Shown here: positions 21,094-57,629 of the stretch, in pieces | Position numbering within the stretch: position 1 is the first letter of the stretch | Layout: each line of letters opens with the position of its first letter | IMG/VR virus record: IMGVR_UViG_3300030372_003714 | Span: 1 to 64,000 of that record | Direction: 5' to 3' (one strand) | Source: a virus | Lineage: Duplodnaviria; Caudoviricetes | Length of the DNA: 64,000 bases | Notes under the pieces: model-generated | Seen by the model: the letters and a program-made list of their open reading frames with translations, nothing else | Database searches by the model: none | Told to the model about the DNA's origin: nothing | Made by a program: the position numbers and the translations under genes

Positions 21094-24000
21094 TTAACAG
21101 TCCGATAAATAATCTTTCCATAAATCATATAACATTGTTGAGCTTAATTGCTGTATTGGGTAACTAGGTATATGGAAAGACATACCATAATTACTCAATG
21201 ATCCTCCTTGGTATCCTGTTGTATGAGTAGGATCTCCTCCTCCTGATGCTCCCATATATGGATTAGGTATAGTAACATCTGTTGCTACATAACATTGGAA
21301 ATTATATACTGATGGAACATCAACATAACTTGCACAATCTATATGTCCTTGATATGAAATAATAGCATCTTTACTCTGTGCTCCTACTGCTCCCATTAAA
21401 TGGAATATGAAATCTCTTCGTGTAGTAACTACATTTGTTACACTATGATCAATATAAGATCCTGCATATATCATTGTTTTTTGTGTAACATTATGAGATG
21501 TTAAATTAGGATCTCCATTTGCATCCCAACCATATTGGTGTAAACTCATATAGTTATCATAATCATTTTTCCATTGAGGCATCAGTGTATTATTAGGTCC
21601 TGTACCTATTTCATGCCAGTTAAGACCTGGCTGTCCGCCCCATAATGCATTTCCACAAGTACCTCCCCACGCATTTCCACTACTACCAACATTAGTTTCA
21701 TGGTATCCACCTGGATTACCTCTAGACTCGTCTTGGAATACAACCACAATACTGTCTAAATCTCCTCCTTCAAACTCATGATAAGGATCACTGAATCCTT
21801 CTTCTCCAAATGGGTCTTGCCATGGATTAACTTGATTAAATCCATCAGTTGCATAAGATCCAGGTAAGATCATTATTTGTTTTAGTAATGGTCCATGTGT
21901 AGCTGCAATGTATGCTGGATTATTACAATCAGCTGGTGCTCCGCCTATTCCATCTACCATAGTATGAGCCATAACTGTTCTCTTATTTGCAGGTAAAGTT
22001 CCTGTTGCCATTGGATTTACTCCGGCTCCATTTGCTCCTTTGTTACCGCTTAGTGGATAGTTAACCCAAGCTAACCAATCTTCTGGTGCTGTAGCACTAC
22101 CTGGTGCAGCTGCTCCTGTATTATTACAATTATTACAAGGACCAAACTGACTTCCATGAGCCCAAGCCCCAGGAATAACATATAGATGTCCTGAGTATGT
22201 TGGGAAATTTGATTTTATCATTTGGAATGCTGGCTCAATTACATTTACTTTAAAGTCAAGCATTGATGACAGTCTATCAAGGAATGATCCTCCAAATGTT
22301 GAAGTCATATCAAGGAATACATATATGTTACTGTTACCAAAGCATCCAGTATCACATGTTACTTCTTGATCTGTTAATCCAAATGGTACATTACAATCAT
22401 CACATACATCAGCTACTTTATCGAAGAACTTTTTCATATCTATTTCATCTAAACAATTTTCACAAATAGATTCAAACGTTCCTCCTTCTGGCTCATAACT
22501 AGCACAGTCTAAAGCACAGTCTTGTAATGTTGGGTATTGTCCTGTTCCCTGGAAGTTTTGTATACATCCAAATACTGGATCACAATCCCAAGACGAAGAT
22601 ACTCCTCCACATGATGGATCTAATGGACATCCATTACATCCTTGACATGCGACTAATCCTCCATTAGTATTATTAAATGTTCCTGTTCCATCACCTGGAT
22701 CAATACATTGTGTTACTCCATTATTTATAACACAGTTATATGATTCTACATAACATGGTTGTGTATTCATACTTATTGCCATATTACAATTAGCAAGTGT
22801 AGCAAATGTACCTGAACCATCTCCTGGATCAGAACAAGAATATGAATTAGTAGCTGCACTATAAATACAATTATATGATTCTGGTGTACCACAATTTTGT
22901 ATACATGCTTGTACACTAGCATACTGACCATTACCTGTTCCAGGATCAAAACATGTTTGAGTTAAAGGATCACAATCCCATGATGGTGTGTTAGGGCAAC
23001 ATTGTGGTGAGGCTAAACATGCAGCCTGAGATGGGAAACCTGGTCCCGCTGTCGGTACACAGTTACATCCTCCTAATGGATCACATTCCCAAGCAGTTTG
23101 TCCTCCAGTACATAAAGCACATGAAGCGTATGTTTGTGTTACATTTACACTTAAACAAGTAGCTGGATCACAATTTATAATATCATCACAAGATATTTCA
23201 TAACATATAGTAGCATTACCATTTATATTTATAACTTCTCCATTTATATAAGCATTATCTAAATCTGCAGACTGACATACATTATTAATTACAATAGTAG
23301 GATCTGAACAATCTGTTAATTTATAACATGGACATCCTGAACCACTTTCACAATCTGGACAGGTTGGATGAACTGTATTTAATACAACTGCTCCTACTGG
23401 ATTACATGAACCTGTTCCACAAGTACCACATAATTGAACCTCATAACATTCAGTTGTATTTAATGGCGCTGGAGGTGCTCCTCCTAGTGTTACAACTTGT
23501 CCTAATTCTGCAGATAGATCATTTGTTACTACAGTACAAGTACTAGTACAACTACAAGGACCACCGTTTATTGCAAAACAAGCTAATGATCCATCAGCAC
23601 TAACATAATTCTGTGCCAGCCACGTTTGCATTGTATTATAATCCATAGCTGCATTACCATAACCTGCTGCTACTAACTCAGCTCTAGCTGTATCCCAACT
23701 CTCAGTTTGACCCCAATAAGAATTAGTCATGCCATCTAGCGGCTGATTAGGATTAGTACCACATTTATAAATACGTAGTCCTGATAAAGAAACTATCATG
23801 TTTCCAGTAATAGGATCAGTACAATGACTTGATTGACTAGGCAGGATACTGTTTACTAACTTTTTAGTATTATGCAAATCAGTTGGATTATCTATAGAAT
23901 ATTGTTGATATCCATTGGAATATCCAACTCCATTAGCTGTAGATATTAAAGTACGAGTACTACACGAGTCAGTACCACTAAAGGTACACGTACAACTATT

Positions 24001-27000
24001 AGTTCCAATAACAATATTACCAGTGGTTCCGCTAAACCATGCATTGAATTTTGTCCTTAAAGAAGTATAATTATCTGCTACAGTAACTCCTGTAATTCCT
24101 AATGCTATAGCCTCATTACGTAGAGTAGTCCAATTTGAATAACTAATCTGAGAAAAAGGATTTGGAGCACCTATAGCTTGTATACCCCAAACACCTCCTT
24201 GGTTTACCCCAGAACCTGGGAAACCAAATAACTCACAAGGTTGTACAGAGCTTACAGTTGCATATTTTAAAGTCGCAAAATCAACATTATCAAATCCATT
24301 TCCTGGTGTAGTGATAAAGTCACTTGCTGCCATATGTTGATCACTACTAGTAGCTCCTGCAAATGGAGTTGGTGAAACCAGAGTTAAAGTATTTATGTCT
24401 GTCCCATTACAGGTCCCTACAGATACGGTAGAATCACAAGGACATAACTGATAACATTGTTCATTAGATACACAACAGTCCGTACAGTTTTGATATGTAT
24501 TTGTTACAACTACCGTTACTGCTCCCGTTGAAGGACATGGCTGTGGTGTGCAATCTATTTCATAACATGCTCCTGGATATAAATCTATTTCTACTATAGT
24601 ACCTGTACCAATCATACCACTACAATATAATGATAAATCTGTATCAGTAATTATTTGTGCAGGGGCTCCTGCTACTGTATTACAAGAACATAAATTTAAT
24701 GTATAACAAGGATTTACCAAACCACAATCAGTACAATCTCCATTTGGATCTCCTGAAACTAAATTTACAGGGTTAATCAGTGCAACTCCTCCTGGACATG
24801 GATTTATTATATCAACTTCCCAACATCTTTCGCCTGCTGGATCTCCATTATCCCAAGTTATAATTCCTCCAACATATCCTGCAAGAGCCGGATCATCAGA
24901 ATATTCTGTAATATACGTACATCCAGAACCTTGTAAACACACACCATCTTCACATCCAAAATTTACATTTGGATTTCCATATATACCACATGTAGCTCTT
25001 CTATCATATATTCCTTCTGGGCCCATTAAACCTGTAGGGAAATCAGTAGCAAAAGAATTACTACTTGAGAAAGGTCCCATTAATGCATCAGCATTATAAA
25101 TAGCGCCTGGGCAATTATCAGGTAAACCATCGTTATCATTATCTTGATAAAGATTAGGACAAGTAGGATCACTTTGGAAACAAGGACAATCACAAAGACT
25201 ATCACATCCATTAGCTGCTCCAAATGTTAACCAATCATGGCCATATCCAAATGCGTGTAGTATTTCGTGTATACCTACTCTAATTAAAGAAAATGAATTT
25301 GCTACTACTGCATCTCCTGCTTTTCTCCAGTTTTCATTTGCATCAAATAATAATAAACCTACTTCTGGAGAAGCTTTAGCAATTCCTGGATCATTGAAAT
25401 TTAAATTTCCTGTAAAGCATAATCCTAATATTCCTGAAGCTCCTCCAGTATTACCACATCCACTTCCTCCTGCTGGATCTAATGCTCCAAAGTCTGAGAA
25501 TCCAATTCTAAAGTCTCCTATTCCTGCTACTCCATTACTATCAGTAAAAGATGTTCCATTGTTACCAGTTATAGTGTTTGTTCCCATTGCTGGATCACCT
25601 GCAGTATATCCAGTTTCATATCCTAAATCTGTAAAGTTAACAGTTAAATTAGCTCCATATCCACAGTTTGTATTAAATACTCCTTCAAGCATTGCTTTAA
25701 TTTCAGCAAACATTGTTTGCATTTCTGCCTTAAACTGTACATGTGTAATCGTATATGTTTTATTATAAGGAGCACAAAATGGCCAAGAACTAATTCCTGT
25801 TGTATTAGCTGTACCTGGCCCTTGTTCACAAGCTAAAGCTGGACCAAAACCAGGAATACCTATTGGGAATGTAGCTCCATCGTTAATGAAACTATAGCTA
25901 AAGTCTACTGTTTGTGCTATACCTGGTGCTCCCTGTGTTCCTAATGCTTGTACTGCATTTACTAATGCCGCCCACCTTTGTGGTGTATTATTTATACATG
26001 TAGGAGACCAAGTCTTTCCGTATGTAACCATATTCGGAGGCATCGTTGCTGGATCATTTACTGAACACTGATTAGCTGGTCCAGAAGTTCCTCCTGTACA
26101 TTCACACTCTGTTAATTTATAACAGAAGTTTGGTGGAGGTGCACAATCTGTACAATCATTATGTGTAACTGTAATAACAGGATCTGGGTTAATCACATTA
26201 GCCGGATCACATGGACAAGGCATATTTAACCATGTTGGGAATCTTTCTCCCATAGGTCTATTACCTATATCATAAGAAGGAACTGGATTTATAAGCTCTA
26301 GTCCCTGCTCTATTGCTAATGCATTATTAGGATCATCTAATCTTAATAATGAATTTGTTATTTGATTTCCTGCTCCTACTTTTAGCATGTATGGATTATC
26401 TTGTAACTGTTCTACTATATTTAGCCAAAGTTTACCATCTGGTCCTACAACTAAATCATTAATCATAACATTACATCTAGTTACATCTGTCGGAGTTCCA
26501 TACCATCCTGAAGCAGTAGATGCATCAGGGAATGATTTAACATGGTCTGTATAGCCTCCTGCAGAATTTGTAAACCACATAAATGGAGCCGCGTTCGGTC
26601 CTGCAGCATCAAATGCAGCAGCATCATCTGTTTCATTGTAAAATACAAAAGCTTGTTGAGCGGCCATTTCTATAGCTAATCCTTTTAATTTTAAGATTAT
26701 TATCCCAAATCCACTTTTAATTAAGGTATTATTATAAGGATCATTTGTATCATAATATTGAGTCCCTGATAAAATTAAGTTTCTTCCATTAGGACTAAAA
26801 GCCATAGAATCTACTCTGTCAAGAAAATAATCACCTACATATGCTCCAAGTGTAGGAGATTTTTCTCGGTGTATCCCAAGAACAATGGAATTGAAAACTC
26901 CATTGTTTGCTCCTCCGTTATAACCATTATTGAATGTCCATCCTATTGCTGCAGTCGCTGAATCTCCTGTAACAGGATTTAACCCAAAAGCAAAGGTTTC

Positions 27001-30000
27001 TGAAGCTACGTTATTAAGATCATCCCCTTCAAACCTTACAGCTATAATATCATTTGTTTGATTTACTAATAATTCACCAGATCCTATTGTCTGGGTTCCA
27101 GATGCAGCTGAATTATTCCATCTACCAGTTACGACATCTACTGCAACAAACGCTGTACCTATTCCGGCACTACTAAATTTAATACCTTTGATATGCTGAT
27201 TAGCCCAATCTGCACCGTTAGACATAACAGGAACATAGTAGAAATGCCAGTAAGCGCCAGATCCTATTCCCGTAGTTGTATTTACACACATAACCTCAGA
27301 TGCTGATGCTGCTAAAGTCGTATTGTCAGATGCAGCTAGTACTTCTCCTTTTCCTGAATTAAGAGTCATATCAACTATAGACCATTTTATAGGACCATTT
27401 CCAGCACTATTTTGTATTACATAATACTGATGCCACACTCCATCTGTTACTCCTCCTGCAGCGTTTGGAATAATTACTGCTCCTTGAGCTGGGAATGTTT
27501 TACCATCTGAACTTGTTGCTCCTTGATTTGCATTTCCCTCATGTACGGGACCTGAATCAAGATTCATTTTAGTGTGAGTTCTATCATATATCCAATGACC
27601 GTCTGTATAGAACATTAAATCTCCTGCCGCAAAAGCGTGTCCACCTATAGTAGCTGCTCCTGTTGCAGAATGTACTGCTGCTCCTCTAAAAGTATAAGCA
27701 TCTGAATTTGGTGCATTCGAGGAGTTAAAGTTTAACATAGTAGATTGTCCATTAAAATCTGCTACCGGTGCTCCTGTACTAAAATCTATTCCTAGTCTAT
27801 CTCCATAGAACCAATTTGTACCTGCTATTGGATTTCCTTGGCTAGTACATTGTTTCCAACATCCTATTTGTCCTCCTAATTCTACTACATCTGTTCCTAT
27901 TGTAGCACCAAGTCCTCCTGATACAGTTATTGTTGTTCCTGGATTAGTACATGATTCTAATAATGTACATTGAGGATCACATGGATTTACTAAACAATAA
28001 CTACAATCTGGCATATTACCTGTTCCTACTGTTGCTGTAGCTATCGCAGTTACATCTGCATCTGGTAGCATACCAGTACAATCAGCACTAGCACTTACTG
28101 TCCAACATCCTGTATAAAGAATACCACCTACTGTTATATCTGCTTGAACTACAGATCCTACATCAGCAGCTGTAATACCTGTTGTTACATTAACAATTTG
28201 ATCTGGTACATATGAAGGACCACAACAATGTGCTACTTTTACACATGTTTGTCCTGAAGTAGCGCAATCTGCACAATCTGCATAAGACGCAGTTATTGCT
28301 CCAGTAGGATATACTACTGTTGTAGGTCCTAAACAACCTACTAATACTTTATGACAATTATCTTGTGCTACTCCCCCTATTGTAATATCATGAGCATTAG
28401 CTGCTCCAATAAAAGGATGAAGTGTCGGAGAATTCAAATAATCAACACTAGTTATATTTCCTGTAACACAATCTTCAACTCTTAAATAATATCTACAAGA
28501 AGCACAATCTACTTGGGTAGATGATACAGTTAGAGCTGCCTCAGTTCCTTGAGGACCGGTTGGATTAATTTGTATTTCTCTACAGAAACATTCTCCTGCT
28601 AAATGTACTACTACTCCTGCTGCAAAATAAGCATCTATTAATGGAGTTGATGTAGCTCCTACTCCATTAACTGTATATACAACATCAGTAGGATCTCCAC
28701 ATTTTGGTAATTTATAATATACTGTTGGATCTGGAGTACAAGTAGGACAATCTGAATATGGCCCAGGACTAGTATCTAATATAACTGATACTGGGCTTAT
28801 ACAAGTTGGAGATTTTTCTACATACCAACAAGTACCTCCTTGAAGTCTTACATATAAACCTATATAAGGAGATAATATAGCTTGAGTACTATATTGTATA
28901 ACTCCTGTATCACAATTTGTTAATTTATAGCAACAATCTTCTGTACCTGGTGCACTTAAACAATCAACACAGTCTGTATATAAAGTTACACTAGGATCTG
29001 TATTATTTGGCCACTTAGAACATATATCATTATAACCTAAACCTGTAGGAATATTCGTCCAAGCATTTGTTGCTGTAACTGGGTTAATTAAACCTATTAC
29101 AGCTGTCTGTCCAGTACCAGCATCATTTAATGTATGTAAAAATAATTCATAATTACCAATACCTACTAGCTTTGCAGATATAATATAAGTAATACTAGTA
29201 GCTATACTAAGACCTCTAACTCTTTCTATACCATATGCATCTTGTCCTGCAACAAAACTACAAACAGTAGCTAAGTCAGATATTACTGTATGATTACCAT
29301 TAGCATCATCAATGCTCATTAATTTATTTAAACCTCCAGCTCCAGTATTATCTCCTAATACATAATAATCACCGCTATTATAATCTACAGATAAATCATA
29401 TCCTAAACTAATAGTTGCATTAGTTACACTACCTGCTATTGCTATACCTCCGCTTAAAGAATTAGTATATCTAGCAAACGTCGCATTTCCTCCTACCATA
29501 TCACCTGCTACAATATGTCCTGTTGCACTATAATCATAATCTAAACATTGAGGAACTGTAAAAGCATTGGTAATTAGCTCAGGATCAGATATATAACTTG
29601 GCCACGCTGATGCCCAAGATATATCAGTAGCGCCTGATGTATATATAATATTACCATGTTTATCAAATGTTAGATCTTTTAGATTACCTATAACACCATT
29701 CCATGTAGTAAATTCAGAAATAGAACAAGTACCATTTAGTACATTATCAATAGAATAAATATTTCCATCTTCAGAAGTAAACCAAAAATGCTCTGTTGGA
29801 GCTGTTGCTTCACCACAAACTGGCGTTCCTCCATTACTAACTGAATATACATCGCCAGCTACTACAGTAGTTAAATCATTAGTAATTATTCCAGGCATTT
29901 CTACTGGGCCTAAAGAATACGTTCCTCCTGTTGGAGTTGTAGCTTCAATACAACATGGTAAAAATCCTATACATCTATCTTGAAAAACATCTAAACATGC

Positions 30001-32607
30001 TCTACAAGTATTATAAAAAGTATCAGGTTGTTGCCAGTCACAAGGTTGAACATGATGTGTAGTAGGAATTTCTGATGTATAACAAAAGAAACATCCTCTA
30101 TGCTCTCCAGTAGCTGGTAGTTGCCAAACATCTGTATTAGGATCATTACATTTACCTGCATAGAATGCATAATCTGGATCTATACCTAATATTCTTAATG
30201 GGCTGTTCTCAAAATACCAAGCTGCATTTGCAGTTGAACATGACATAGGAAGACTTGTCCAAGGGAAAAGTCCAGGATCTGTAACTATTGAAGTAGCAAA
30301 TGCTGCCCAAACTATAGCAGCACCTGATGCTACATCCCCATTATGTGTTACTGTTGAACCTAAAGCTCCTGTTGTAATCTGTACTTTATCCGTACCACCA
30401 ATTCTAGAAATTGTTATAGTAGTAATATTTCCTGGAGCTGCATTTGTACATAAAGTCCAAGCCCCTGCTACTGTATCATATATAGCTACTCTATCACCAA
30501 AAGCTACATATACTAACTGAAGTGATACATCTACTCTACTATATGTGGCAACAGCAGTAGGATGTTTACCTGCTAATGCGCCTCCAAATGCAGATGATAT
30601 ATCAATTTGAGACGCGGCAGACCAAGCGCTTACTTCATTAGTATCTGTTTTTATAGCACCAATACTATAAATATTAGTTTCTCCTGCTTTTAATCCTACA
30701 AATTGAAATGTATCACATAATAGATCGGTAGTAGGATTTGTTTGTCCTCCACTTGCTGGGCCAGTCCACATCACATGACTTACAGCTTTAATAGATGCCC
30801 AATTAGCTAAATTAGCTCCACCTATTGCTTGTGGATTTGTTATTGTAGAATTATCACTATTCCATTTTAAATAGCTAACACTATTACCCCCGGTTGGAGA
30901 ATCCCATATATACAGATTATCAGTATATTGATTATGTGCTAATCCTATAACTCCTGCGGCACTTAATTGCCCAATATCTGCAAGTTTATTTACTCTAGCA
31001 GTTGTAACAAGATTAGTAACGAGCCAAAGACCTTTATCAGTATCTAAGTATACCATGTCACCCTGATTACACTTTTTAATTAAAAGATCAGGATTAGCTG
31101 AAGTTGCATATGTACATGGAGTAAATTGTGGGGCTCCATATCTATAATATGTATTATCTAATAAAGTACCTACCATACTAGCTGTAGGAGCAGTAGTTAC
31201 CGGAGCGTTTACATTTTCTATAATACAGTGTTGTATTGGATTACTTGTTGTTGTATCATTTGTACTGTATATTTCTGGATAATGTGTACTCCAAGTTGGG
31301 CTAGTAAAGGTTACTGATAAAGTCCATTCACCAGTTTTTAATGGTGTAGAAACAAAAATTCTTCCACTTTTTTGTGGATCTCTCCATATACCTGCAATAA
31401 TTCTTCCGTTATGATTTGGCTCCCATATATTAATTCCTGCATTATCATTAATATCTATAGCTCCCTTATTTGTTACAGACCATACATTTAAGCTATTTAT
31501 TTCATTCCAAGCAATTTGTAAAGTAGGAGAAGCAGCCCCAGAAGAATCTAAATTACCATAATAAAGATGTCCCTTAGTAGCTGTACTATCATGAGACCAA
31601 ACAGCATACATATTATAATATCTAGAATCGTCTCCTGGAGAAGCTGGCCATGGTCTTGGTCCTTTGTCTAATCCATTTGTATTTTGGTATGTTGGATTAG
31701 ATAGTTGTCCTGTAGTACCATCAAAAGAGAGAACTTCAACTTTATCTAAAAGTTGCGGAACATCATTAGTTCCGACAGTAGGTCTATATATTGTTGCTAC
31801 TTTATGATTATTTACTCCAGTTGTAGATATTTCTAAAGGTGTAACATCTACTACACCATGAGGACCATTATCTTGCCAGCCAGTATAATTTGTACCTACA
31901 GCACTCACAATAGGCACACTATAAGATTGATCAATTATAGGCCATCCAGTTGAGTTTACTGCTAGAATTTGCCATGTAAGCCATCCATTATCAGTCCAAG
32001 TACCAGAACTAGAAGTAGCTGACTTTGCAATTATCCAAAATCCACTATCATATGCTGGATTAGGAGCTTTATATGTTCTTCTGCATATTGTTGCCATACG
32101 TCCCCCAACACCAGTTTGAGAACCCGATAATGTACCTAGTGTTCCTCCTGGAGGAGTTTGTCCAGATAATGTATAATTACTAAATGTTCCTAATCCACCA
32201 TCACCTGACATATCAACTAATCCTACTCGTATACCACTGGTTAAAGCATTTGAGAATACCCAATAATATCTACCTTTATCAATTTTTGCTACGTCAGCTA
32301 ACGTATCTGGAACTTTAACTATATTTACAGATTGTGGTAAACTTTTAATTCCTCCAGTAGTACTGGAGCCATTCATTATATTACCAGTTCTATTAAAAAT
32401 TTGATTACCGTCAGAAAAAAACATCAAGTCTCCATCAGCATAAGACTGTGCTCCATGAGTTACTGCACCATCTGCAGTTATTGTTGCACTAGACCAATGA
32501 GCAGTACGATCAGGAACACTTTCATTTATTGGAGGAGTGGCACCATTTATTGTATTAGTTAGTATTTGAGTACCTGTAAACCACTTTTGATAATCTTTTG
32601 CTGACAT
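21094..32607 (-). CDS. Giant 3837-aa Cys-rich multidomain protein (two beta-propeller-like blocks, Cys-rich repeats, metzincin protease domain); probable virion appendage
   Basis: Uninterrupted ORF in the tail-fibre region; HEILHAFGYGH plus Met-turn; repeated CYxLxxC...YxxCxxC modules. Confidence 0.8.
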   Translation of the reverse strand: MSAKDYQKWFTGTQILTNTINGATPPINESVPDRTAHWSSATITADGAVTHGAQSYADGDLMFFSDGNQIFNRTGNIMNGSSTTGGIKSLPQSVNIVKVPDTLADVAKIDKGRYYWVFSNALTSGIRVGLVDMSGDGGLGTFSNYTLSGQTPPGGTLGTLSGSQTGVGGRMATICRRTYKAPNPAYDSGFWIIAKSATSSSGTWTDNGWLTWQILAVNSTGWPIIDQSYSVPIVSAVGTNYTGWQDNGPHGVVDVTPLEISTTGVNNHKVATIYRPTVGTNDVPQLLDKVEVLSFDGTTGQLSNPTYQNTNGLDKGPRPWPASPGDDSRYYNMYAVWSHDSTATKGHLYYGNLDSSGAASPTLQIAWNEINSLNVWSVTNKGAIDINDNAGINIWEPNHNGRIIAGIWRDPQKSGRIFVSTPLKTGEWTLSVTFTSPTWSTHYPEIYSTNDTTTSNPIQHCIIENVNAPVTTAPTASMVGTLLDNTYYRYGAPQFTPCTYATSANPDLLIKKCNQGDMVYLDTDKGLWLVTNLVTTARVNKLADIGQLSAAGVIGLAHNQYTDNLYIWDSPTGGNSVSYLKWNSDNSTITNPQAIGGANLANWASIKAVSHVMWTGPASGGQTNPTTDLLCDTFQFVGLKAGETNIYSIGAIKTDTNEVSAWSAASQIDISSAFGGALAGKHPTAVATYSRVDVSLQLVYVAFGDRVAIYDTVAGAWTLCTNAAPGNITTITISRIGGTDKVQITTGALGSTVTHNGDVASGAAIVWAAFATSIVTDPGLFPWTSLPMSCSTANAAWYFENSPLRILGIDPDYAFYAGKCNDPNTDVWQLPATGEHRGCFFCYTSEIPTTHHVQPCDWQQPDTFYNTCRACLDVFQDRCIGFLPCCIEATTPTGGTYSLGPVEMPGIITNDLTTVVAGDVYSVSNGGTPVCGEATAPTEHFWFTSEDGNIYSIDNVLNGTCSISEFTTWNGVIGNLKDLTFDKHGNIIYTSGATDISWASAWPSYISDPELITNAFTVPQCLDYDYSATGHIVAGDMVGGNATFARYTNSLSGGIAIAGSVTNATISLGYDLSVDYNSGDYYVLGDNTGAGGLNKLMSIDDANGNHTVISDLATVCSFVAGQDAYGIERVRGLSIATSITYIISAKLVGIGNYELFLHTLNDAGTGQTAVIGLINPVTATNAWTNIPTGLGYNDICSKWPNNTDPSVTLYTDCVDCLSAPGTEDCCYKLTNCDTGVIQYSTQAILSPYIGLYVRLQGGTCWYVEKSPTCISPVSVILDTSPGPYSDCPTCTPDPTVYYKLPKCGDPTDVVYTVNGVGATSTPLIDAYFAAGVVVHLAGECFCREIQINPTGPQGTEAALTVSSTQVDCASCRYYLRVEDCVTGNITSVDYLNSPTLHPFIGAANAHDITIGGVAQDNCHKVLVGCLGPTTVVYPTGAITASYADCADCATSGQTCVKVAHCCGPSYVPDQIVNVTTGITAADVGSVVQADITVGGILYTGCWTVSASADCTGMLPDADVTAIATATVGTGNMPDCSYCLVNPCDPQCTLLESCTNPGTTITVSGGLGATIGTDVVELGGQIGCWKQCTSQGNPIAGTNWFYGDRLGIDFSTGAPVADFNGQSTMLNFNSSNAPNSDAYTFRGAAVHSATGAATIGGHAFAAGDLMFYTDGHWIYDRTHTKMNLDSGPVHEGNANQGATSSDGKTFPAQGAVIIPNAAGGVTDGVWHQYYVIQNSAGNGPIKWSIVDMTLNSGKGEVLAASDNTTLAASASEVMCVNTTTGIGSGAYWHFYYVPVMSNGADWANQHIKGIKFSSAGIGTAFVAVDVVTGRWNNSAASGTQTIGSGELLVNQTNDIIAVRFEGDDLNNVASETFAFGLNPVTGDSATAAIGWTFNNGYNGGANNGVFNSIVLGIHREKSPTLGAYVGDYFLDRVDSMAFSPNGRNLILSGTQYYDTNDPYNNTLIKSGFGIIILKLKGLAIEMAAQQAFVFYNETDDAAAFDAAGPNAAPFMWFTNSAGGYTDHVKSFPDASTASGWYGTPTDVTRCNVMINDLVVGPDGKLWLNIVEQLQDNPYMLKVGAGNQITNSLLRLDDPNNALAIEQGLELINPVPSYDIGNRPMGERFPTWLNMPCPCDPANVINPDPVITVTHNDCTDCAPPPNFCYKLTECECTGGTSGPANQCSVNDPATMPPNMVTYGKTWSPTCINNTPQRWAALVNAVQALGTQGAPGIAQTVDFSYSFINDGATFPIGIPGFGPALACEQGPGTANTTGISSWPFCAPYNKTYTITHVQFKAEMQTMFAEIKAMLEGVFNTNCGYGANLTVNFTDLGYETGYTAGDPAMGTNTITGNNGTSFTDSNGVAGIGDFRIGFSDFGALDPAGGSGCGNTGGASGILGLCFTGNLNFNDPGIAKASPEVGLLLFDANENWRKAGDAVVANSFSLIRVGIHEILHAFGYGHDWLTFGAANGCDSLCDCPCFQSDPTCPNLYQDNDNDGLPDNCPGAIYNADALMGPFSSSNSFATDFPTGLMGPEGIYDRRATCGIYGNPNVNFGCEDGVCLQGSGCTYITEYSDDPALAGYVGGIITWDNGDPAGERCWEVDIINPCPGGVALINPVNLVSGDPNGDCTDCGLVNPCYTLNLCSCNTVAGAPAQIITDTDLSLYCSGMIGTGTIVEIDLYPGACYEIDCTPQPCPSTGAVTVVVTNTYQNCTDCCVSNEQCYQLCPCDSTVSVGTCNGTDINTLTLVSPTPFAGATSSDQHMAASDFITTPGNGFDNVDFATLKYATVSSVQPCELFGFPGSGVNQGGVWGIQAIGAPNPFSQISYSNWTTLRNEAIALGITGVTVADNYTSLRTKFNAWFSGTTGNIVIGTNSCTCTFSGTDSCSTRTLISTANGVGYSNGYQQYSIDNPTDLHNTKKLVNSILPSQSSHCTDPITGNMIVSLSGLRIYKCGTNPNQPLDGMTNSYWGQTESWDTARAELVAAGYGNAAMDYNTMQTWLAQNYVSADGSLACFAINGGPCSCTSTCTVVTNDLSAELGQVVTLGGAPPAPLNTTECYEVQLCGTCGTGSCNPVGAVVLNTVHPTCPDCESGSGCPCYKLTDCSDPTIVINNVCQSADLDNAYINGEVININGNATICYEISCDDIINCDPATCLSVNVTQTYASCALCTGGQTAWECDPLGGCNCVPTAGPGFPSQAACLASPQCCPNTPSWDCDPLTQTCFDPGTGNGQYASVQACIQNCGTPESYNCIYSAATNSYSCSDPGDGSGTFATLANCNMAISMNTQPCYVESYNCVINNGVTQCIDPGDGTGTFNNTNGGLVACQGCNGCPLDPSCGGVSSSWDCDPVFGCIQNFQGTGQYPTLQDCALDCASYEPEGGTFESICENCLDEIDMKKFFDKVADVCDDCNVPFGLTDQEVTCDTGCFGNSNIYVFLDMTSTFGGSFLDRLSSMLDFKVNVIEPAFQMIKSNFPTYSGHLYVIPGAWAHGSQFGPCNNCNNTGAAAPGSATAPEDWLAWVNYPLSGNKGANGAGVNPMATGTLPANKRTVMAHTMVDGIGGAPADCNNPAYIAATHGPLLKQIMILPGSYATDGFNQVNPWQDPFGEEGFSDPYHEFEGGDLDSIVVVFQDESRGNPGGYHETNVGSSGNAWGGTCGNALWGGQPGLNWHEIGTGPNNTLMPQWKNDYDNYMSLHQYGWDANGDPNLTSHNVTQKTMIYAGSYIDHSVTNVVTTRRDFIFHLMGAVGAQSKDAIISYQGHIDCASYVDVPSVYNFQCYVATDVTIPNPYMGASGGGDPTHTTGYQGGSLSNYGMSFHIPSYPIQQLSSTMLYDLWKDYLSDC
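22490..23110 (-). repeat. Five tandem ~35-40-aa Cys-rich repeats, [W/Y]xC...C.DPG.G.G.[Y/F].[S/T]...C
   Basis: AWECDPLGGC, SWDCDPLTQTCFDPGTGNGQY, SYNC...CSDPGDGSGTF, SYNC...CIDPGDGTGTF, SWDCDPVFGC...GTGQY. Bounds approximate. Confidence 0.75.
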
Positions 32608-41592: not shown

Positions 41593-44074
41593 TCGGTTTC
41601 TTTTTAGCTGCTGTTCTCTTTATAGCTTCTTCTGCTTTATTGGCCCTCTTCTTTTCATTTAGCTCAGCTTTTTTCAATCCTAATTCACCTTGCATTTTTT
41701 CTCTTTGTAGTGCCATATCTGCATTACTCTTGGCTTCAGCTACTCCTGCTTCAGCTTCTTTATGATCTACATAACCATCATTATTTTCATCAGCGTCTAT
41801 CATTTTTGCCTCAGCATTAATCATAGCAACTTTGATTTTAGTTTCATTATCTTGTAGATTACGAGCATCTTCTCTAGCCTCTTTCTCTTGCTCCATCTGC
41901 ATTTGCATTTGCTGTTGTTGTTGAGCAGCTTGTTGTTCTGCTTGTTGAGCTTGAGCTTGCTTTTTCTCCATTTCTGATTGAGCTGTTTCTAACATTTTTC
42001 TAACCTTAGTCATAGACTCAGATTGTAAAATAGTAGCCACATCTGTAAAGCTTACTACTCCTGCTTGTAATGCTGCTTGAGCTAAAGACTTCAATGATTC
42101 TAATGCTCTATCATCTTTAGAAGAATTTGAAACAAATACTCCATAACTAGAATTAGTAAAGTCTTCTGCATCTATATTTAAAAAAGTTCTCATCATATCA
42201 TCTCCTAGATATTGAATCTTTTTTCCTGTTCTATAAGACATTTTAGCTACATCTAATAATGCAGTTAATACTCTTTTCTTACATTCATTATGAGAATAGA
42301 ACCAGAATTCAGTAATATGTGAAGACTGTACTACAGCTCTTTCAGTGTTACCTACTAATTCTGATGTTTGTACTTGACCTTGTCTTTGTCTACTAACTCC
42401 TGATAATTCACCAAGTTCAGTTTTAATTGCATCTAGTAATTGTACATGAGTATTAATATAATTACCCATAGATAAATCTATACTTTGGAATTGATTAAAT
42501 GGAGCTGCATCTCTAGATCTATTTCCTTCTTCTCTAGAATTAATAAACATTACTCCCATAGATTCTAAGTAATACATCCATTTAGATACATCCCATCCTT
42601 CAGACGCAGGTATTTGAGAAATATCCATTAATGCTACTTTACCTTTTGATTTAGCTATAGCTAATTCTGTTCTATAGTAAATAATATTATATAGATATTG
42701 GAAAGGCTTCATTCTATCAATTAATGAAATAGATTCTGAATTTCTTTCATTATAGATATAACCAACATATCCTGATTTTACATCACTAGGATTAGACATA
42801 TCTCTACGTTGGTTTTTCTTAGGCTTAACATTACAATAAATATCTTCTCCAATTTTAGTACCTTCCCAATACTCACTTATCCAATACCACTTCAGTTCTA
42901 CGCCATCAAAGAAATAAGATCTTCCTTTCTTTTCAGCATAATCCGGCACTTCAAATATTTCATCTACAACATCTTCTTGCGCCTGTCCTTGAGCATCAAA
43001 ATAAGAAACAATTCCAATTTTTCTCATAGACTTCCATTCTACTTGTAGAACTCTAATCATTCCATTTCTTCGATACTGTCTAATTTGTCCAGGATCAAAA
43101 ACTCCACTACCTACTGTATCTAATCTTTCATAGTTAACTATATTAAACTCGCTATATGGATAATTTAAACCATTACTTTCCATATTATCATTTCTTCCAT
43201 CTGGTCCTCTTTCGAGTTTATCAATCTCAGAAGGTTCTAAATCTTGATAAAATTCGTCAATGACTGTAGATAAAGTTAACCATCTCTCTTCTATTACTGC
43301 TTGTGAGTCTTCTATCCACGGAGAATCTGGATCTAAAATTACTCTTACGTCTAATGGATTTACTAATCTAACTGTAGGATTTCCTGATATATCTCCTACC
43401 CAATAAATTTCTTCACCAGCAATTAATGCATCTTTAAATCCTTGATTAAACTTAAGCTCTAAATCATCCTCTCTCGTTAAAAACTCTAATATACTTTGAG
43501 CAGTTATTTCTTTTATATCTCTATATTCATAGTTAATATATTTTTCAATTTGAGCTGGAGTTTTTGGTTGATAAGTTGCCGCGGCTTCAGGATCTGTTTG
43601 TTGTAATTGTTGAAGTTCTTGTTGTTGAGCTGCCTCGTCTTCTGGGCTAACAACCACAGAATATAGATACTGCATCATCATCTCTTTCTTCATCTCTTCT
43701 AATTTTGAAATAGCATCGGGATCATGAGATACTACTTTAAAATTAAATGGACGTTTTATTTCTTCACCAATTAATAATTGAAGTTTTGGAGAGATAATAT
43801 CATAATGCTGCATCTGTGCAGGGAATTCTCCTTCATTAAATCCAAAAGGATTTAGTACATATTGAAAATCTTGTTGATCTAGTTTACCATTAAACAAATC
43901 ATAATTAATTTGTTTTTTAAATCTAGAAGATCTTCCATTATAATTTATATCTCCATACGTTATTTTTTCAAGCTCATCAATACATGTACGAGCCCACTTC
44001 TTGCCTTTCTTATTTCGAGGTAATTTCTGTCTAGGCAGATCCCCCAAAATATATGATCCCATGTTTTCTTCCAT
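41582..44074 (-). CDS. Portal protein
   Basis: 830 aa directly downstream of terminase; HYDIISPKLQLLIGEE, FKDALIAGEEIY, SLIDRMKPFQYLYN, LSGVSRQRQG; Gln-rich C-terminal coiled coil. Confidence 0.9.
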   Translation of the reverse strand: MEENMGSYILGDLPRQKLPRNKKGKKWARTCIDELEKITYGDINYNGRSSRFKKQINYDLFNGKLDQQDFQYVLNPFGFNEGEFPAQMQHYDIISPKLQLLIGEEIKRPFNFKVVSHDPDAISKLEEMKKEMMMQYLYSVVVSPEDEAAQQQELQQLQQTDPEAAATYQPKTPAQIEKYINYEYRDIKEITAQSILEFLTREDDLELKFNQGFKDALIAGEEIYWVGDISGNPTVRLVNPLDVRVILDPDSPWIEDSQAVIEERWLTLSTVIDEFYQDLEPSEIDKLERGPDGRNDNMESNGLNYPYSEFNIVNYERLDTVGSGVFDPGQIRQYRRNGMIRVLQVEWKSMRKIGIVSYFDAQGQAQEDVVDEIFEVPDYAEKKGRSYFFDGVELKWYWISEYWEGTKIGEDIYCNVKPKKNQRRDMSNPSDVKSGYVGYIYNERNSESISLIDRMKPFQYLYNIIYYRTELAIAKSKGKVALMDISQIPASEGWDVSKWMYYLESMGVMFINSREEGNRSRDAAPFNQFQSIDLSMGNYINTHVQLLDAIKTELGELSGVSRQRQGQVQTSELVGNTERAVVQSSHITEFWFYSHNECKKRVLTALLDVAKMSYRTGKKIQYLGDDMMRTFLNIDAEDFTNSSYGVFVSNSSKDDRALESLKSLAQAALQAGVVSFTDVATILQSESMTKVRKMLETAQSEMEKKQAQAQQAEQQAAQQQQQMQMQMEQEKEAREDARNLQDNETKIKVAMINAEAKMIDADENNDGYVDHKEAEAGVAEAKSNADMALQREKMQGELGLKKAELNEKKRANKAEEAIKRTAAKKKPNAQ

Positions 44075-44126: not shown

Positions 44127-46145
44127 TTAAAATCTTACTTTTCTCTTTTTAAAGTGAGATGTGCGCCAAAATTTATCACCTAAGCCGTAGTCAAACTGGG
44201 CTTCTAAATCAATATGATAGTTTTCATGTGAGTGTAAAATACATAACATAAACGCTATTGCGCGGTCAAAGTTACCATCTTTATCATATGCTATCAATTC
44301 TTTTAGTAATGGTATAGACAATATAGAATGTAAATTTAATTTATCATTACCATCTTCACCATCGGCTCTTTTTTCTAGCAACCAATCTCTTAAATATATT
44401 TCAGCTTGCACCTTTATTGGCTGACTCATGTGTACTCCATATCCTCTAGCTACTGTAGTTCTATTTACAATATCTTTTAAAATACTTGGTTGAGACTTCA
44501 ATAAATGTAAACACTTTTTTTGCTCAAAATATATCTTCAAACCTTTTAAGTTATTTTCATATAAGGTTTGCGCATTGTAATATGTGAGAAGTTTTCTAAT
44601 ATTCTCATAATATTCTTTTGCGGTTTCTGGTCTACCAGTATATTCTGCTACTGGTAAATTATAAGTTTTATCAAACTTTTGGAATGTCTTATAAATAAAA
44701 GTACTTCCCAAAGAGCTCGTTGTAGAATCGTCTTGATCATAAGGGTCAGTTCCTGCAATATACAATCCAAACGGACTACTACCAGAATCATCTCTATAAG
44801 GATGTTCCCATATAACAATACATCCTTGTTTATCTTCGTTTGGTTTTAATGGGAATTTATTAATAGGTTTTAAATCATTATTAGGCATCCATTTTACTGT
44901 ATCCTTTTCCCAATATAACTCACCTACCATAGCCATGTCTTGTGCTTTTTTAGTAACTTCAAGTTCAGCTAGCCAAGCATTTAATTCAATAGTAGGGAAT
45001 ATATTTCCGCTTGTTTTTAAGAAAGCTTCTCTTGGAGTCTTTGGTGACTGTGTGATATATTTTTCCCAAGTAGTTCTAGAATCTGTAGTTTTTAATATCC
45101 TGCGCTCTTGATCTAAAAATGTTTCAGCCGCTTCTCTATTAGAGTTACCATCTTCATCTACCATACTAACTACCTCGCCCGTTTTCTCTATTGTAACCTT
45201 TCCAGGCTTATACCACATATCATCAATAAAAAATCCAGCATTAGTTCCAAGACCTCCATCATCCCAAATATTCTCATAAGGTCTTAACCAATACTTTTCT
45301 GGATTGTAAAACATCTCAGCAAAATCATTAGATCCACCATCCATGTCACCCCCTGTTCCAAAGATAAGAGGCATACCAATCATAACATTACCATCTCTAA
45401 ATACTGGAGCTGTTACCATATATGCATTTATAAGATTAGGGAATTTTCCAGCCTCCTCGAATAACATAAGGTCTGCTGTTTTACCAATAGCTGCCGAGAA
45501 GTTATCCTTAAACGTTAGTGTAAATATTTCACTATTATATCCATTCCAAACTTCCTGGCCATCTACCACTTCTTTAAACCTGGCTTTTACAAAATCTCGT
45601 CTATCTGGATTTCTACGCTTTGCCCATGCGGTATGTTTATTTATAAAGTTTAACATTTCAAATGCCATACTCATAGTAGCTCCAGAATATTCATTTAAAT
45701 AAGCTCCAATAATACTTGTAGAATCTCTAAAGAAATTATATTGATATACACATAATGCCCCGTTCTTATATGAGAATCCCTTACGTCGGGCTTTTGCTAC
45801 AATTATTCCTTGCCCGTTTTGTCTAGCTAATTCTACCTCCATAAAATAATAATAGTCCATATCTAGAAAAGAAGGGAATGTTAAGATCTTTCTTTCTATT
45901 TTACCCTGCTTTACTGTTGCTTTAATCTGTGTAAAATTTAAATAAAAATAATGAGCACCTGTAATTCTAACTCCTCCTATTTCATAACCATCCATACATC
46001 TACGGGTTTGTTCATCCCAATATTCTCTATATGCATAGGTGCCTGGAGGAGAGTTAGTATAATATCCATTCTTTATGAAGTTTTTAGCTTCACAAGAAAA
46101 CTCTCTTGTATTAACAAAATGTGGTACTATTTGGAAGTGATTCAT
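44127..46145 (-). CDS. terL: Terminase large subunit
   Basis: Walker A KARRKGFS, Walker B LFEEAG, FGTGG coupling motif, nuclease GTDPYDQD and NFDRAIA. Confidence 0.93.
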   Translation of the reverse strand: MNHFQIVPHFVNTREFSCEAKNFIKNGYYTNSPPGTYAYREYWDEQTRRCMDGYEIGGVRITGAHYFYLNFTQIKATVKQGKIERKILTFPSFLDMDYYYFMEVELARQNGQGIIVAKARRKGFSYKNGALCVYQYNFFRDSTSIIGAYLNEYSGATMSMAFEMLNFINKHTAWAKRRNPDRRDFVKARFKEVVDGQEVWNGYNSEIFTLTFKDNFSAAIGKTADLMLFEEAGKFPNLINAYMVTAPVFRDGNVMIGMPLIFGTGGDMDGGSNDFAEMFYNPEKYWLRPYENIWDDGGLGTNAGFFIDDMWYKPGKVTIEKTGEVVSMVDEDGNSNREAAETFLDQERRILKTTDSRTTWEKYITQSPKTPREAFLKTSGNIFPTIELNAWLAELEVTKKAQDMAMVGELYWEKDTVKWMPNNDLKPINKFPLKPNEDKQGCIVIWEHPYRDDSGSSPFGLYIAGTDPYDQDDSTTSSLGSTFIYKTFQKFDKTYNLPVAEYTGRPETAKEYYENIRKLLTYYNAQTLYENNLKGLKIYFEQKKCLHLLKSQPSILKDIVNRTTVARGYGVHMSQPIKVQAEIYLRDWLLEKRADGEDGNDKLNLHSILSIPLLKELIAYDKDGNFDRAIAFMLCILHSHENYHIDLEAQFDYGLGDKFWRTSHFKKRKVRF

Positions 46146-53758: not shown

Positions 53759-53830
53759 TAGCGGGTGAAGGAATCGAACCTCCGGCTCTGGCTAATGAAA
53801 CCAGCGAGTTCACCATTACTCTAACCCGCG
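53759..53830 (-). tRNA. tRNA-Met (CAT), initiator-like, no encoded CCA
   Basis: Cloverleaf: CGCGGGT/ACCCGCT (C1:T72 mismatch), D stem GAGT/ACTC, anticodon stem CTGGT/GCCAG with loop TTCATTA, T arm GGAGG-TTCGATT-CCTTC; followed by CTA. Confidence 0.85.
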
Positions 53831-54400: not shown

Positions 54401-54643
54401 ATGGATAATACATCTACTACTACTACAGTTAAGTCTCCTAAGAGATATGGTCGTTATGACATTGTTACTCTTAAGTCTGACGGTTCTAGGAAGATAGTTC
54501 TTCGTAGAGACGGACAACTTAAGTACGACACTGTTACTGACAAGTTCGTATCAACTAAGGGAGATGAGTGGTTTGAGTATACTGAAGAGGTAATTCAGTA
54601 TCTTGACAAATCCCTTCAAGAGAAAGGATACATTGAACTGTAG
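54401..54643 (+). CDS. Hypothetical early protein
   Basis: 80-aa ORF, first on the plus strand. Confidence 0.55.
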   Translation: MDNTSTTTTVKSPKRYGRYDIVTLKSDGSRKIVLRRDGQLKYDTVTDKFVSTKGDEWFEYTEEVIQYLDKSLQEKGYIEL

Positions 54644-55297
54644 TAGATACTAATCATCACACCAGATGAACAGTATTGGAGTCGTTATACACTCTATCAA
54701 TCAGTATAACACACAACACTCGGGTCGTTCCCTAACTCACTGACTAAGGTTTATCCTAAAGGTGAGAGTGTTGTTCTTTTTTAGATCTATGACCATTACT
54801 AAGTTTTGGTAGGTTAAGTGTTGTTCACTTATAATTGACGACTTAAGAAAGTTATTGTAATACAATAGAAGTTCGACAGATGATCTAATTCAGAAAAGAT
54901 GTCTTCCTACCTTTATTAGGAACTAGTGTTGAGTGTGTGTGTGTGAGACACAAGGAGAACAAGTGTTATGACCCCTTGAGTAAAATCAAGAACTACTTGT
55001 CTCTTCTTTTTTTTTAGATCAACGACCTTTACTAAAATTTGGATACGATTAACCACAATCTGTGTGTGTGTGATACGAATTATATTCCTCATTCCCTTAT
55101 AAAACAACTCAACACTTAATGATATTGATAAGAATGATGAAAATAAGTATACATAGACACTTATGTGTGTTAAGACTACCATTTAACTAACATTTTAACT
55201 AATTGTTATTATAGTATATTAATATATATATAGCTAAAGTGCTACTATGATAACTACAAACCGAAGAGAACAATGTGATAACCGTTCAACTAAACAA

Positions 55298-55990: not shown

Positions 55991-56080
55991 TATTAATCTG
56001 GTGTGAATAGTTGTGTGTGAGTGTGTGGCTTCGTGTCACCACTCTACATACATCTAGAATTACCATAAAAACAGTTTGTT

Positions 56081-56314
56081 ATGAGAAATCAATTTAAACA
56101 TCTATTAGATACATTATTTGTATCACTATTATACATTGGTATGATAGTATTTCCACTATTCATTGTATTAAACATATTAAATGTATGGGATCTAGGTAGT
56201 GGATTGTTAAATTTAATTGCCATCATATTTGCAGTAATATTTACTATTGCGTGTAAGTATGGTACAAGAGAAGCAAGAATTAGTCATAATCGTGGCGATA
56301 GATTCTTGTTTTAA
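56081..56314 (+). CDS. Two-TM membrane protein
   Basis: Two long hydrophobic segments. Confidence 0.6.
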   Translation: MRNQFKHLLDTLFVSLLYIGMIVFPLFIVLNILNVWDLGSGLLNLIAIIFAVIFTIACKYGTREARISHNRGDRFLF

Positions 56315-56319
56315 TTAAT

Positions 56320-56368
56320 AATAAGGTACAGGGAGTTCCTGCTAAGTTAGTTACCGCTCAGCCTTATT
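56320..56368 (+). ncRNA. Putative structured RNA motif, copy 1
   Basis: AATAAGG/CCTTATT closing stem and CAGG/CCTG inner stem; shares three sequence blocks with copy 2. Confidence 0.55.
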
Positions 56369-56394
56369 TATCTTTTAATTTAAACTATATTGTT

Positions 56395-56604
56395 ATGATA
56401 GTATTAAGATCAGAATCACAGGTTAAATCATTTATGAAAAGAATGAATAAAGAACATAGTCGTTGTTATTATGATTATGATGAATCGTATGACCAATGGG
56501 TATTTAAAGATGGTAATAAAATAGTTCTTCGTTATCATAGACAATTTGGAAATTATGAAGAACATAATGATCAGCTTTTAGCTGTGATAAAGAATAAAGC
56601 TTAG
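56395..56604 (+). CDS. Hypothetical protein
   Basis: 69-aa ORF. Confidence 0.55.
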   Translation: MIVLRSESQVKSFMKRMNKEHSRCYYDYDESYDQWVFKDGNKIVLRYHRQFGNYEEHNDQLLAVIKNKA

Positions 56605-56613
56605 CGGCTTTAT
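56594..56613 (+). terminator. Terminator-like hairpin
   Basis: ATAAAGC-TTAGCG-GCTTTAT over the stop codon; weak U-tract. Confidence 0.4.
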
Positions 56614-56709
56614 ATTGTGACATTAGTCAGTCACTCTTAAATAGCATAGGGTGACTCCTATTCAGGGTTAGCAACCCTTATTCCTAGAAGACTAGAATTA
56701 AATAAAGCT

Positions 56710-56777
56710 AATAAGGTACAGGTATTTGCTTGATGATGTAAATAGTTCCTGCTAAGTTGATGTTATCCAGCCTTATT
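56710..56777 (+). ncRNA. Putative structured RNA motif, copy 2
   Basis: Same stems as copy 1, with the inner hairpin extended by ATTTGC/GTAAAT. Confidence 0.55.
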
Positions 56778-57431
56778 TATGATAAACTAAAGACTACGTC
56801 AATTAGGCGAGCCTTAAGGGTAACGAAAGTAGAGCGAAAGCTTGTCGTCACACTGCTCTGGTCTTTAGATACAAAGTGGATAAATGTTTAAAAGCCAGGC
56901 ACCACACTCGGTAACAGAGACTGGTTAAGAAATAATACTTCATGGAGTTAATGCAAAAAGCTTCAGTCATTCTAGATGGGCAAGGTATGTTTTGATAGCA
57001 AACACAGAGTAATTTATAGCTGAAGGAAAGTTCCTTTATAAAAAAGACTTAGTTTTATAGCTGAGATTTCAGAATGAACTGTGGGCATATGATAGAAGTA
57101 TAATAATATTTTCAACCACTTATAGTAGAGCCTGAGTCTACACTTAATTAGATAGGAACATCTAACCTCTGGTGTGTAAAGTAGGTCTCCATTGTGATGC
57201 ATATAGTTTTCTATTTGTCGTAAATAAGAGTATGCATTTTCTTTTGGATCGAAAGAGTATAAAGAAGATGCTATGTAATGTATTACACATGATGGACTCT
57301 CTGCATACTATAATCTGGTTGAATCTCTATGAGTGAGTGACAGTATTGCTTGATGTGCCTTAGATGTGGACGATAGTTGACGCTGTTACTACACTCATAT
57401 TTAATTAAATGTATAACTTAAATTATTAATT

Positions 57432-57629
57432 ATGGAAAATATTGCTATATTTGCGCTCATTTTTGTTAGTGGAGTTGTATTAGGAGTTTATATTATGGTT
57501 CAAATAAATAATAAATATGATCGTAAAACTATGGATCAGTTATTAGAATTAGAAGATCATGTAGCATCTTTAAAAAAGTATAATCGTGCTTTATTAGATA
57601 AATTAAAGCCTAAAACACTCGAAGACTGA
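57432..57629 (+). CDS. Membrane-anchored coiled-coil protein
   Basis: N-terminal TM segment followed by a coiled coil. Confidence 0.6.
   Translation: MENIAIFALIFVSGVVLGVYIMVQINNKYDRKTMDQLLELEDHVASLKKYNRALLDKLKPKTLED

Follow-up and report, generated by a model that had tools for sequence, protein, structure and literature searches.

Layout of the early region and the two element copies

The window analysed here is the first 64 kb of a complete virus genome of 88,720 bp (88.7 kb), with direct terminal repeats and 34% G+C, which we refer to as G000. On its sequence, G000 is classed as a marine crAss-like phage; a minus-strand open-reading frame (10365-15965) matches the Crassvirus muzzle protein (E 8.5e-151), and the large terminase subunit shares at most 42% identity with any deposited phage. 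The plus strand carries, from 58364, a ribonucleotide reductase (RNR) gene followed by a family-A DNA polymerase and a helicase, and beyond these G000 encodes DnaB, an AAA_24 ATPase, DnaG and a PD-(D/E)XK nuclease. Giant open-reading frames lie on the minus strand, one of 3,837 aa (21094-32607) with only a weak matrixin match, and a second of ~2,950-3,000 aa outside the window (G000 positions 74975-83998) which is a candidate crAss virion RNA polymerase. The structural genes run leftward from ~54.2 kb, and from 54.4 kb follows an early-type region of small plus-strand ORFs and long ORF-free stretches, with the element described here ~2 kb inside it. The small early ORFs ORF80 (54401-54643) and ORF69 show a weak similarity (22% identity, with the motif G.KIVLR), and may be distant paralogues.

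A preliminary description, made from the letters of the window alone, had reported a twice-repeated motif with an outer and an inner stem preserved in both copies, an insertion in the second copy that pairs with itself, and a start codon 26 nt beyond the first. Direct checking of the sequence confirmed the repeat at both positions and the coordinates of both stems (P1 and P2), the insertion ends TATTTGC and GTAAATA are complementary, and the ATG at 56395 does lie 26 nt past the P1 end of copy 1. The blocks TAATAAGGTACAGG, AGTTCCTGCTAAGTT and CAGCCTTATTTAT are identical between the copies, which differ only at the apex of the inner stem (a G in copy 1 vs. a 21-nt insert with pairing ends in copy 2) and in a 9-10-nt linker. 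The exact 10-mer AAGGTACAGG and 15-mer AGTTCCTGCTAAGTT each occur twice in the 64 kb, both times as the element copies, and the 15-mer is likewise restricted to these two positions in the whole 88.7-kb genome. With near matches counted in, the 10-mer occurs 13 times, vs. a mean of 3.3 in shuffled sequence (none of 100 shuffles reached 13), whilst the excess for the 15-mer is marginal (8 vs. a mean of 2.8; 1 of 100 shuffles).

Table 1. Positions of the element copies, their parts and neighbouring features in the window
Feature	Position	Strand	Description
Large terminase subunit	44127-46145	-	
Insertion relative to L218	56315-57106	+	792 nt: copy 1, ORF69, 105-nt spacer, copy 2, 325 nt ORF-free (blastn, junction sequences)
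Element copy 1	56320-56368	+	short form, 49 nt from P1 to P1
Copy 1, 5' edge	56319		conserved T before the element
Copy 1, P1	56320-56326/56362-56368		
Copy 1, J1/2	56327-56328		UA
Copy 1, P2	56329-56332/56338-56341		CAGG/CCTG, loop GAGTT
Copy 1, J2/3	56342-56348		CTAAGTT
Copy 1, P3	56349-56351/56356-56358		AGT/GCT, loop TACC
Copy 1, J3/1	56359-56361		CAG
Copy 1, 3' edge	56369-56371		TAT after the element
ORF69	56395-56604	+	69-aa hypothetical protein, bracketed by both copies
Element copy 2	56710-56777	+	long form, 68 nt
Copy 2, P1	56710-56716/56771-56777		
Copy 2, J1/2	56717-56718		UA
Copy 2, P2	56719-56722/56748-56751		
Copy 2, P2 extension	56723-56729/56738-56744		TATTTGC/GTAAATA, loop TTGATGAT
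Copy 2, 3' bulge	56745-56747		GTT
Copy 2, J2/3	56752-56758		CTAAGTT
Copy 2, P3	56759-56761/56765-56767		GAT/ATC, loop GTT
Copy 2, J3/1	56768-56770		CAG
ORF-free, hairpin-rich stretch	56782-57106	+	after copy 2, inside the insertion; counterpart after the element absent in other genomes
Conserved ORF-free segment	57107-57431	+	common to L217 and L218; right border of the variable slot

Distribution, variants and fold of the element

The preliminary description had not recognised the motif as any known family, and the searches agree. At gathering threshold Rfam 15 gave a single match in the window, a tRNA at 53759-53830, and no family on the element; at E<=10, the region 56000-57500 gave only chance matches of snoRNA or miRNA type, none of them on the element, and 12 related loci gave nothing on it. 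Models of hammerhead, twister, twister-sister, pistol, hatchet and HDV ribozymes, of riboswitches and of tRNA-like structures did not match the element at E<=10, and ARAGORN found no tRNA or tmRNA there. A tRNA or tRNA-like identity was rejected, as the 7-bp stem, UA and 4-bp stem resemble the acceptor and D arms only, and T and anticodon arms are absent.

Homologues, whose existence the preliminary description had made a test of its proposal, do occur: beyond the window, six more sequence variants or contexts were found in marine phage contigs, giving eight distinct ones in total. Four gapped-pattern scans of IMG/VR returned one other carrier there, G001, a 113.6-kb, 97%-complete crAss-like contig; in a 15-mer scan of IMG/VR, all of the 118 matches listed were chance matches in coding regions, and a look-up of IMG/VR relatives through the 89-aa neighbour protein returned G001 itself only. 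A metagenome scan yielded further marine contigs (Tara and JGI ocean samples), and look-ups of ORF69 homologues yielded more. The main long form is found in copy 2, G001, L221, L234, L222, L250 and L253. L225 and L251 carry a G>A change in the loop, L229 a G>A change in the linker, and L228 a shorter apex with one A-A mismatch. A more distant type (L223, L224, L226 and L232, ~85% identical) has loop and linker changes, AAG replacing CAG, and an altered P1, and copy 1 is a distinct short form of its own. Both between copies 1 and 2 and between the L223 type and the main type, GGTACAGG and AGTTCCTGCTAAGTT are kept intact whilst loops and linker change.

A covariance model built from seven long forms, with copy 1 left out (R1), recovered copy 1 at 46.6 bits (E about 3e-9), found no additional copy in G000 and a single copy in the whole genome of G001. 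The carriers are a small group of marine crAss-like phages and the distribution is narrow. No nucleotide similarity to the element region was found among INPHARED phages, and the early region of phage phi14:2 held no homologue (best R1 score 12 bits, E 0.27). A scan of 185,579 species-representative bacterial and archaeal genomes gave six chance matches in coding sequence and no element, and R1 did not find it in 151 sampled Bacteroidota genomes; an origin in, or mimicry of, a host sequence was rejected, with no real match in either collection.

MAFFT misaligned copy 1 against the long copies, and a model-based alignment was used instead. From it RNAalifold independently gives a three-way junction with four helices: P1 of 7 bp plus a U.G pair (7-8 bp), P2 of 4 bp, a 7-bp P2 extension with a 3-nt bulge on its 3' side, and P3, a 3-bp hairpin. 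The junction strands UA, CUAAGUU and CAG are invariant (AAG in one variant), the P2 extension, paired with itself, comes and goes as a whole, and the substitutions in L225 and L229 fall in loops. Compensatory change is limited to two pairs of one helix, P3, with the pairs G-C/A-U/U-A in the main type; in the L223 type these are A-U/G-C/U-A, and copy 1 has A-U/G-C/U.G. By our own estimate from the base composition of G000, a random linker would pair in the P3 register in ~6% of cases per variant; the 5' half AGT is common to copy 1 and the L223 type, so that the P3 changes may reflect a single event. In the L223 type P1 pairs only with a 1-nt slip, and L228 has an uncompensated A-A in the P2 extension.

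Folding energies are lower on the plus strand (-12.6 and -13.8 kcal/mol for the two copies) than on the minus strand (-11.2 and -9.6 kcal/mol), and the G.U pairs (in the P2 extension, at the inner end of P1 and in P3 of copy 1) can form on the plus strand only. Neither copy is more stable than its shuffles (z -1.1 and -0.4), and the minimum free energy structure of a 506-nt context does not retain the element fold. The data fit a folded single strand, as modelled. In favour of the structured motif that was first proposed are the insert that comes and goes as a paired unit, the swapped base pairs of P3 and the variable spacing, whilst covariation is thin and the fold no better than that of shuffled sequence. 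The spacing between the halves of the inverted repeat varies between copies, which excludes a double-stranded DNA operator bound by a dimer. We also considered a pseudoknot in which the P2 loop pairs with the 3' linker (copy 2, GAUGAU/GUUAUC; copy 1, GAGU/GCUC). It fails in L228, is reduced to 4 of its 6 pairs in the L223 type and would consume conserved-block bases in copy 1; the single substitutions of L225 and L229 would each strengthen it, but it was dropped because the local hairpin P3 accounts for the same bases more consistently. On this comparison of sequences, we regard the element as real, small, structured and unclassified, with thin covariation, and as a candidate for biochemical testing.

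A portable unit at mosaic joints

The main new result is that the element is accessory and portable, and that it is located at mosaic joints. The closest relatives of G000, L218 and L217 (76% and 91% identity, respectively, in the ORF247 protein), both lack it. In both, collinearity with the window ends at the stop codon at 56314 and resumes at 57107. The slot between these two positions holds 2 nt in L218 (from the ORF77 stop to TATTTTCAACC), 274 nt of unrelated sequence in L217 and 792 nt in the window, where the insertion starts ~5 nt ahead of copy 1. The element is also absent in the syntenic relatives L258, L261-L265 and L267.

Between more distant phages, the element is shared where its surroundings are not. 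Copy 2 of G000 and positions 43396-43471 of G001 are 99% identical over 76 nt, with unrelated flanks, in genomes whose RNR genes are 65% identical. Homology between the window and L225 is confined to 56375-56778 (92%), starting just past copy 1 and stopping where copy 2 ends, and this module of ORF69, spacer and copy 2 is found at 90-92% identity in L225/L251 and L250, with the other flanks unrelated. On the far side of the element, the upstream module containing ORF69 is followed by any of four different sequences (those of G000, of G001-like phages in L253, of L225 and of L229-like phages in L250), and two downstream modules each occur with two different upstream partners. As the parts which L225 and L250 share with G000 are just 90-92% identical, these two are not chimeras. 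The assemblies L226, L257 and L256 end or have a gap at the element, as expected if populations carry several combinations of flanks. The G000-like contig L256 and G001 come from one metagenome (3300030101), therefore the two phages had the opportunity to recombine.

G001-like genomes have an ORF-free slot, flanked by the first early gene (96-109 aa) on one side and by two paired ORFs (48-50 and 87-90 aa) on the other. This slot is a mosaic of conserved non-coding modules, A to D, and the element is located between C and D in G001, yet between B and C in L222 (slots seen at L216:853-1682, which is G001, at L222:6083-6833, and in L225, L250, L258, L261 and L264). Across all instances, the element is intergenic and in sense orientation relative to the flanking genes, in at least six unrelated flank contexts, at 24 to ~650 nt from the next start codon and 5 to 650 nt from the upstream stop codon. 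The preliminary description had noted a start codon close to copy 1 and had inferred a novel riboregulator, processing site or ribozyme; a regulator of the next ORF is rejected by the varying distances, and the proximity in copy 1 is incidental. Nor is there an obligate link to ORF69 or to the pair of 48-50-aa and 87-90-aa ORFs, each of which occurs without the other. A promoter was likewise rejected: the sigma-70 scan placed no plus-strand promoter-like site in or next to either copy, and together with a search by eye for Bacteroidetes TTTG/TAnnTTTG boxes it gave no consistent site at workable spacing. What these comparisons show is a discrete unit, specific to one strand and conserved in its core, which is gained, lost and relocated as a whole and coincides with crossover points.

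Several further observations concern the sequences around these joints. The contig L253 (ENA ERZ2772612 NODE_20, 77,852 bp) is G000-like before the element and G001-like from the element on, which may reflect either natural recombination or chimeric assembly across the identical 76 nt of the repeat. Modules A, B, C and D are ~120, ~80, ~95 and ~35 nt in size, with unrelated fillers between them and in varying order. The end of module B contains a start codon and ~17 codons (MS[IN]RNIKTQT..., L250:2045-2305 and L229:39-458), which are fused to ORF69 in L250, making it 86 instead of 69 aa, and to an unrelated 139-aa ORF in L229; from its sequence this end appears to be a module for translation start that is both shared and portable. 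Immediately 3' of the element in G001 (L216:1577-1652) is a 13-bp hairpin, AGAAGTAGGAAGG / CCTTTCTACTTCT, whose loop holds a perfect Bacteroidetes -7 box, TATGTTTG, and which, compared with L222, came in along with the element. The filler of the slot in L217 (L217:1890-2163) is structured-looking, and part of it recurs in L258 and L225. At the right border of the slot, the ~325 nt of 57107-57431 are 83-89% conserved with L217/L218 upstream of the ORF at 57432, and are a possible leader or conserved non-coding RNA.

Related systems and possible roles

Crassvirales are among the most abundant phages, and to our knowledge almost nothing has been reported on their early non-coding regions or on the exchange of modules between them. 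In T4-type phages, PeSL (promoter-early stem-loop) cassettes place short conserved intergenic stem-loops at the joints of indels and replacements; PeSLs combine a strong sigma-70-type promoter with a simple G/C-rich terminator hairpin and number dozens per genome (PMC2839356, PMC4122927). The element resembles them in being located in an early or hyperplastic region, where it flanks small orphan ORFs and sits exactly at insertion, deletion and replacement joints, and in that a relative has an empty site, or just one copy, where two copies enclose an ORF in the other phage. It differs in having no recognisable promoter, in its branched three-way junction with invariant junction strands, in its copy number (two in G000 and one in G001, rather than many) and in being near-identical across phages with genes only ~65% identical. 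By this comparison we regard the element as PeSL-like in behaviour but not as a PeSL, since no promoter is recognisable, the fold is branched where PeSLs have a simple hairpin, and copies are few.

Our preferred reading, to which we give a probability of roughly 40%, is a portable cis-acting RNA signal on early transcripts which is at the same time a crossover patch, in analogy to PeSLs. The element would be a portable folded module of ~50-70 nt, most likely read as RNA, in plus-strand early transcripts that are largely non-coding, where it may act in cis as a recognition signal, probably a processing or boundary site for a host or phage factor. Action as RNA is suggested by the invariable sense orientation, by wobble pairs that form on that strand only and by the transcription of a comparable region in phi14:2, a marine crAss-like phage in which long early intergenic regions are abundantly transcribed (10.1101/2020.03.07.982082). 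There too, long ORF-free stretches lie among the first early genes on the same strand, although the early lncRNAs of phi14:2 share neither sequence nor model similarity with the element and are uncharacterised, so that the comparison shows only that such regions can be RNA. The second part of this reading, that the element works as a homology patch for cassette exchange, is largely established by the joints described above: it is the only near-identical stretch between diverged, co-occurring phages and therefore offers a patch of homology for exchange. Cassettes such as ORF69 would be exchanged there in the fashion of PeSL cassettes, and the AAA_24-family ATPase and PD-(D/E)XK exonuclease of the phage would supply the recombination machinery. 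As a counterpoint, 99% identity between genomes may mean recent transfer and not constraint.

We weighed several other roles. A folded single-stranded DNA site, such as an attC-like recombination site, an HUH-enzyme hairpin or an ssi/pas priming signal, would explain the mobility of the unit, and its sharp boundaries, insertion polymorphism and varying position among modules B, C and D agree with this, as does the cassette layout of ORF69 and element, in which, as for an integron attC, an imperfect inverted repeat with a centre of variable length and a strand-specific fold stands 3' of a small ORF. However, no integrase was seen among the ORFs scanned, nor an HUH or transposase gene in the parts of the genome examined, the junctions show no target-site duplication, no attC-like core sites (R/L) were apparent by eye, and one or two copies per genome in uniform sense orientation fit a role in the transcript better; we consider such a site unlikely. 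Slightly harder to accept is a role in terminating or attenuating transcription by the virion or host RNA polymerase, in which the A-rich and U-rich halves of P1 would serve as A-tract and U-tract around a branched hairpin. Copy 1 begins 5 nt past a stop codon, the 3' strand of P1 and its tail are U-rich in copy 1 (CCUUAUUUAUCUUUU) and in L225 and L228 (CCUUAUUUUUUU), and branched hairpins with U6-U9 runs are found elsewhere in the early region (at ~54710-54783 and ~54945-55012). Against this, intrinsic terminators pair a G+C-rich hairpin with a U-tract, whereas the branched fold here has an AU-rich closing stem and only two G-C pairs closing the structure, the terminator scan flagged nothing on the plus strand, and copy 2, G001, L222 and the L223 type have no U-tract tail. 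An ORF begins 42-45 nt past the element in L225 and L228, and no promoter is recognisable in that interval; strict conservation of the junction sequence would not be expected of a terminator.

A new class of small self-cleaving ribozyme, punctuating early polycistronic or non-coding transcripts and, with copies on both sides of ORF69, releasing a defined RNA, is improbable. The invariant nucleotides cluster in the strands of a three-way junction whose stems vary in length, and these strands, CUAAGUU (7 nt), CAG (3 nt) and UA (A alone where the U.G pair forms), have the lengths and circular order of the hammerhead (Rfam RF00163, RF00008, RF02275-7), which likewise occurs sporadically in intergenic regions of phages. 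The small ribozyme classes of Weinberg (2015) are reportedly also sporadic, sense and intergenic in phages, at no fixed distance from ORFs. The core, though, is CUAAGUU and CAG in place of CUGANGA and GAA, P3 has just 3 bp, the small-ribozyme covariance models gave no match at E<=10 and there is no sign of a cleavage site; it is this match in junction geometry and not in core nucleotides that makes us rate a ribozyme low. A selfish miniature repeat that does nothing for the phage, near-identical through recent spread and found at joints simply through recombination between repeats, would account for the sporadic occurrence, the absence in the nearest relatives, the 99-100% identity across diverged genomes and the ordinary folding energy. 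We nevertheless hold it to be improbable, as the core blocks persist and P3 changes are compensated in diverged copies (copy 1; the 85% identical L223 type), all copies are sense and intergenic with only one or two per genome, and none was found in the 151 Bacteroidota or the species-representative genomes searched. An equally improbable role is that of a small RNA released from the early transcript by processing and acting in trans, e.g. a decoy or mimic directed against a host factor or defence system: the element is accessory, as are phage tRNA genes or anti-defence RNA decoys, and has a compact fold with a 7-bp terminal stem in an early-region location, but it has no similarity to tRNA, tmRNA or Rfam families, no similar host sequence occurs in the genomes searched, and the scans recognised no promoter or terminator of its own. 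The boldest combination, a previously unknown three-way-junction RNA that cleaves itself or blocks exonucleases, with hammerhead-like topology and a different core, serving as portable punctuation of early transcripts and also as the joint of an integron-like cassette exchange between co-infecting phages, is a long shot.

The element is a candidate RNA motif outside the families of Rfam, small enough for tests of cleavage, processing and protein binding. It is a natural marker of recombination joints between co-occurring marine crAss-like phages and a probable substrate for their modular exchange. It also provides evidence that small non-coding modules are shuffled to build up the early ORF-free slot. 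Were it a true ribozyme or a specific processing site it would represent a new RNA class, and were it only a homology patch, it would carry over to Crassvirales the concept of modular shuffling developed for the PeSLs of T4-type phages.

The early region upstream of the element holds further repeated features. The branched hairpins with U-runs mentioned above (within 54700-54815 and 54940-55045) are each followed by one unit of a 39-nt direct repeat (54771-54809 and 55004-55042, 82% identical), which contains ACTAAGTTTTGG and ACTAAAATTTGG, respectively, and (TG)n tracts are located at 54934, 55061 and 56014. With their hairpin, U-run and repeat, the units at 54700-55045 have the appearance of a terminator combined with a promoter-like site, as parts of short early transcripts.
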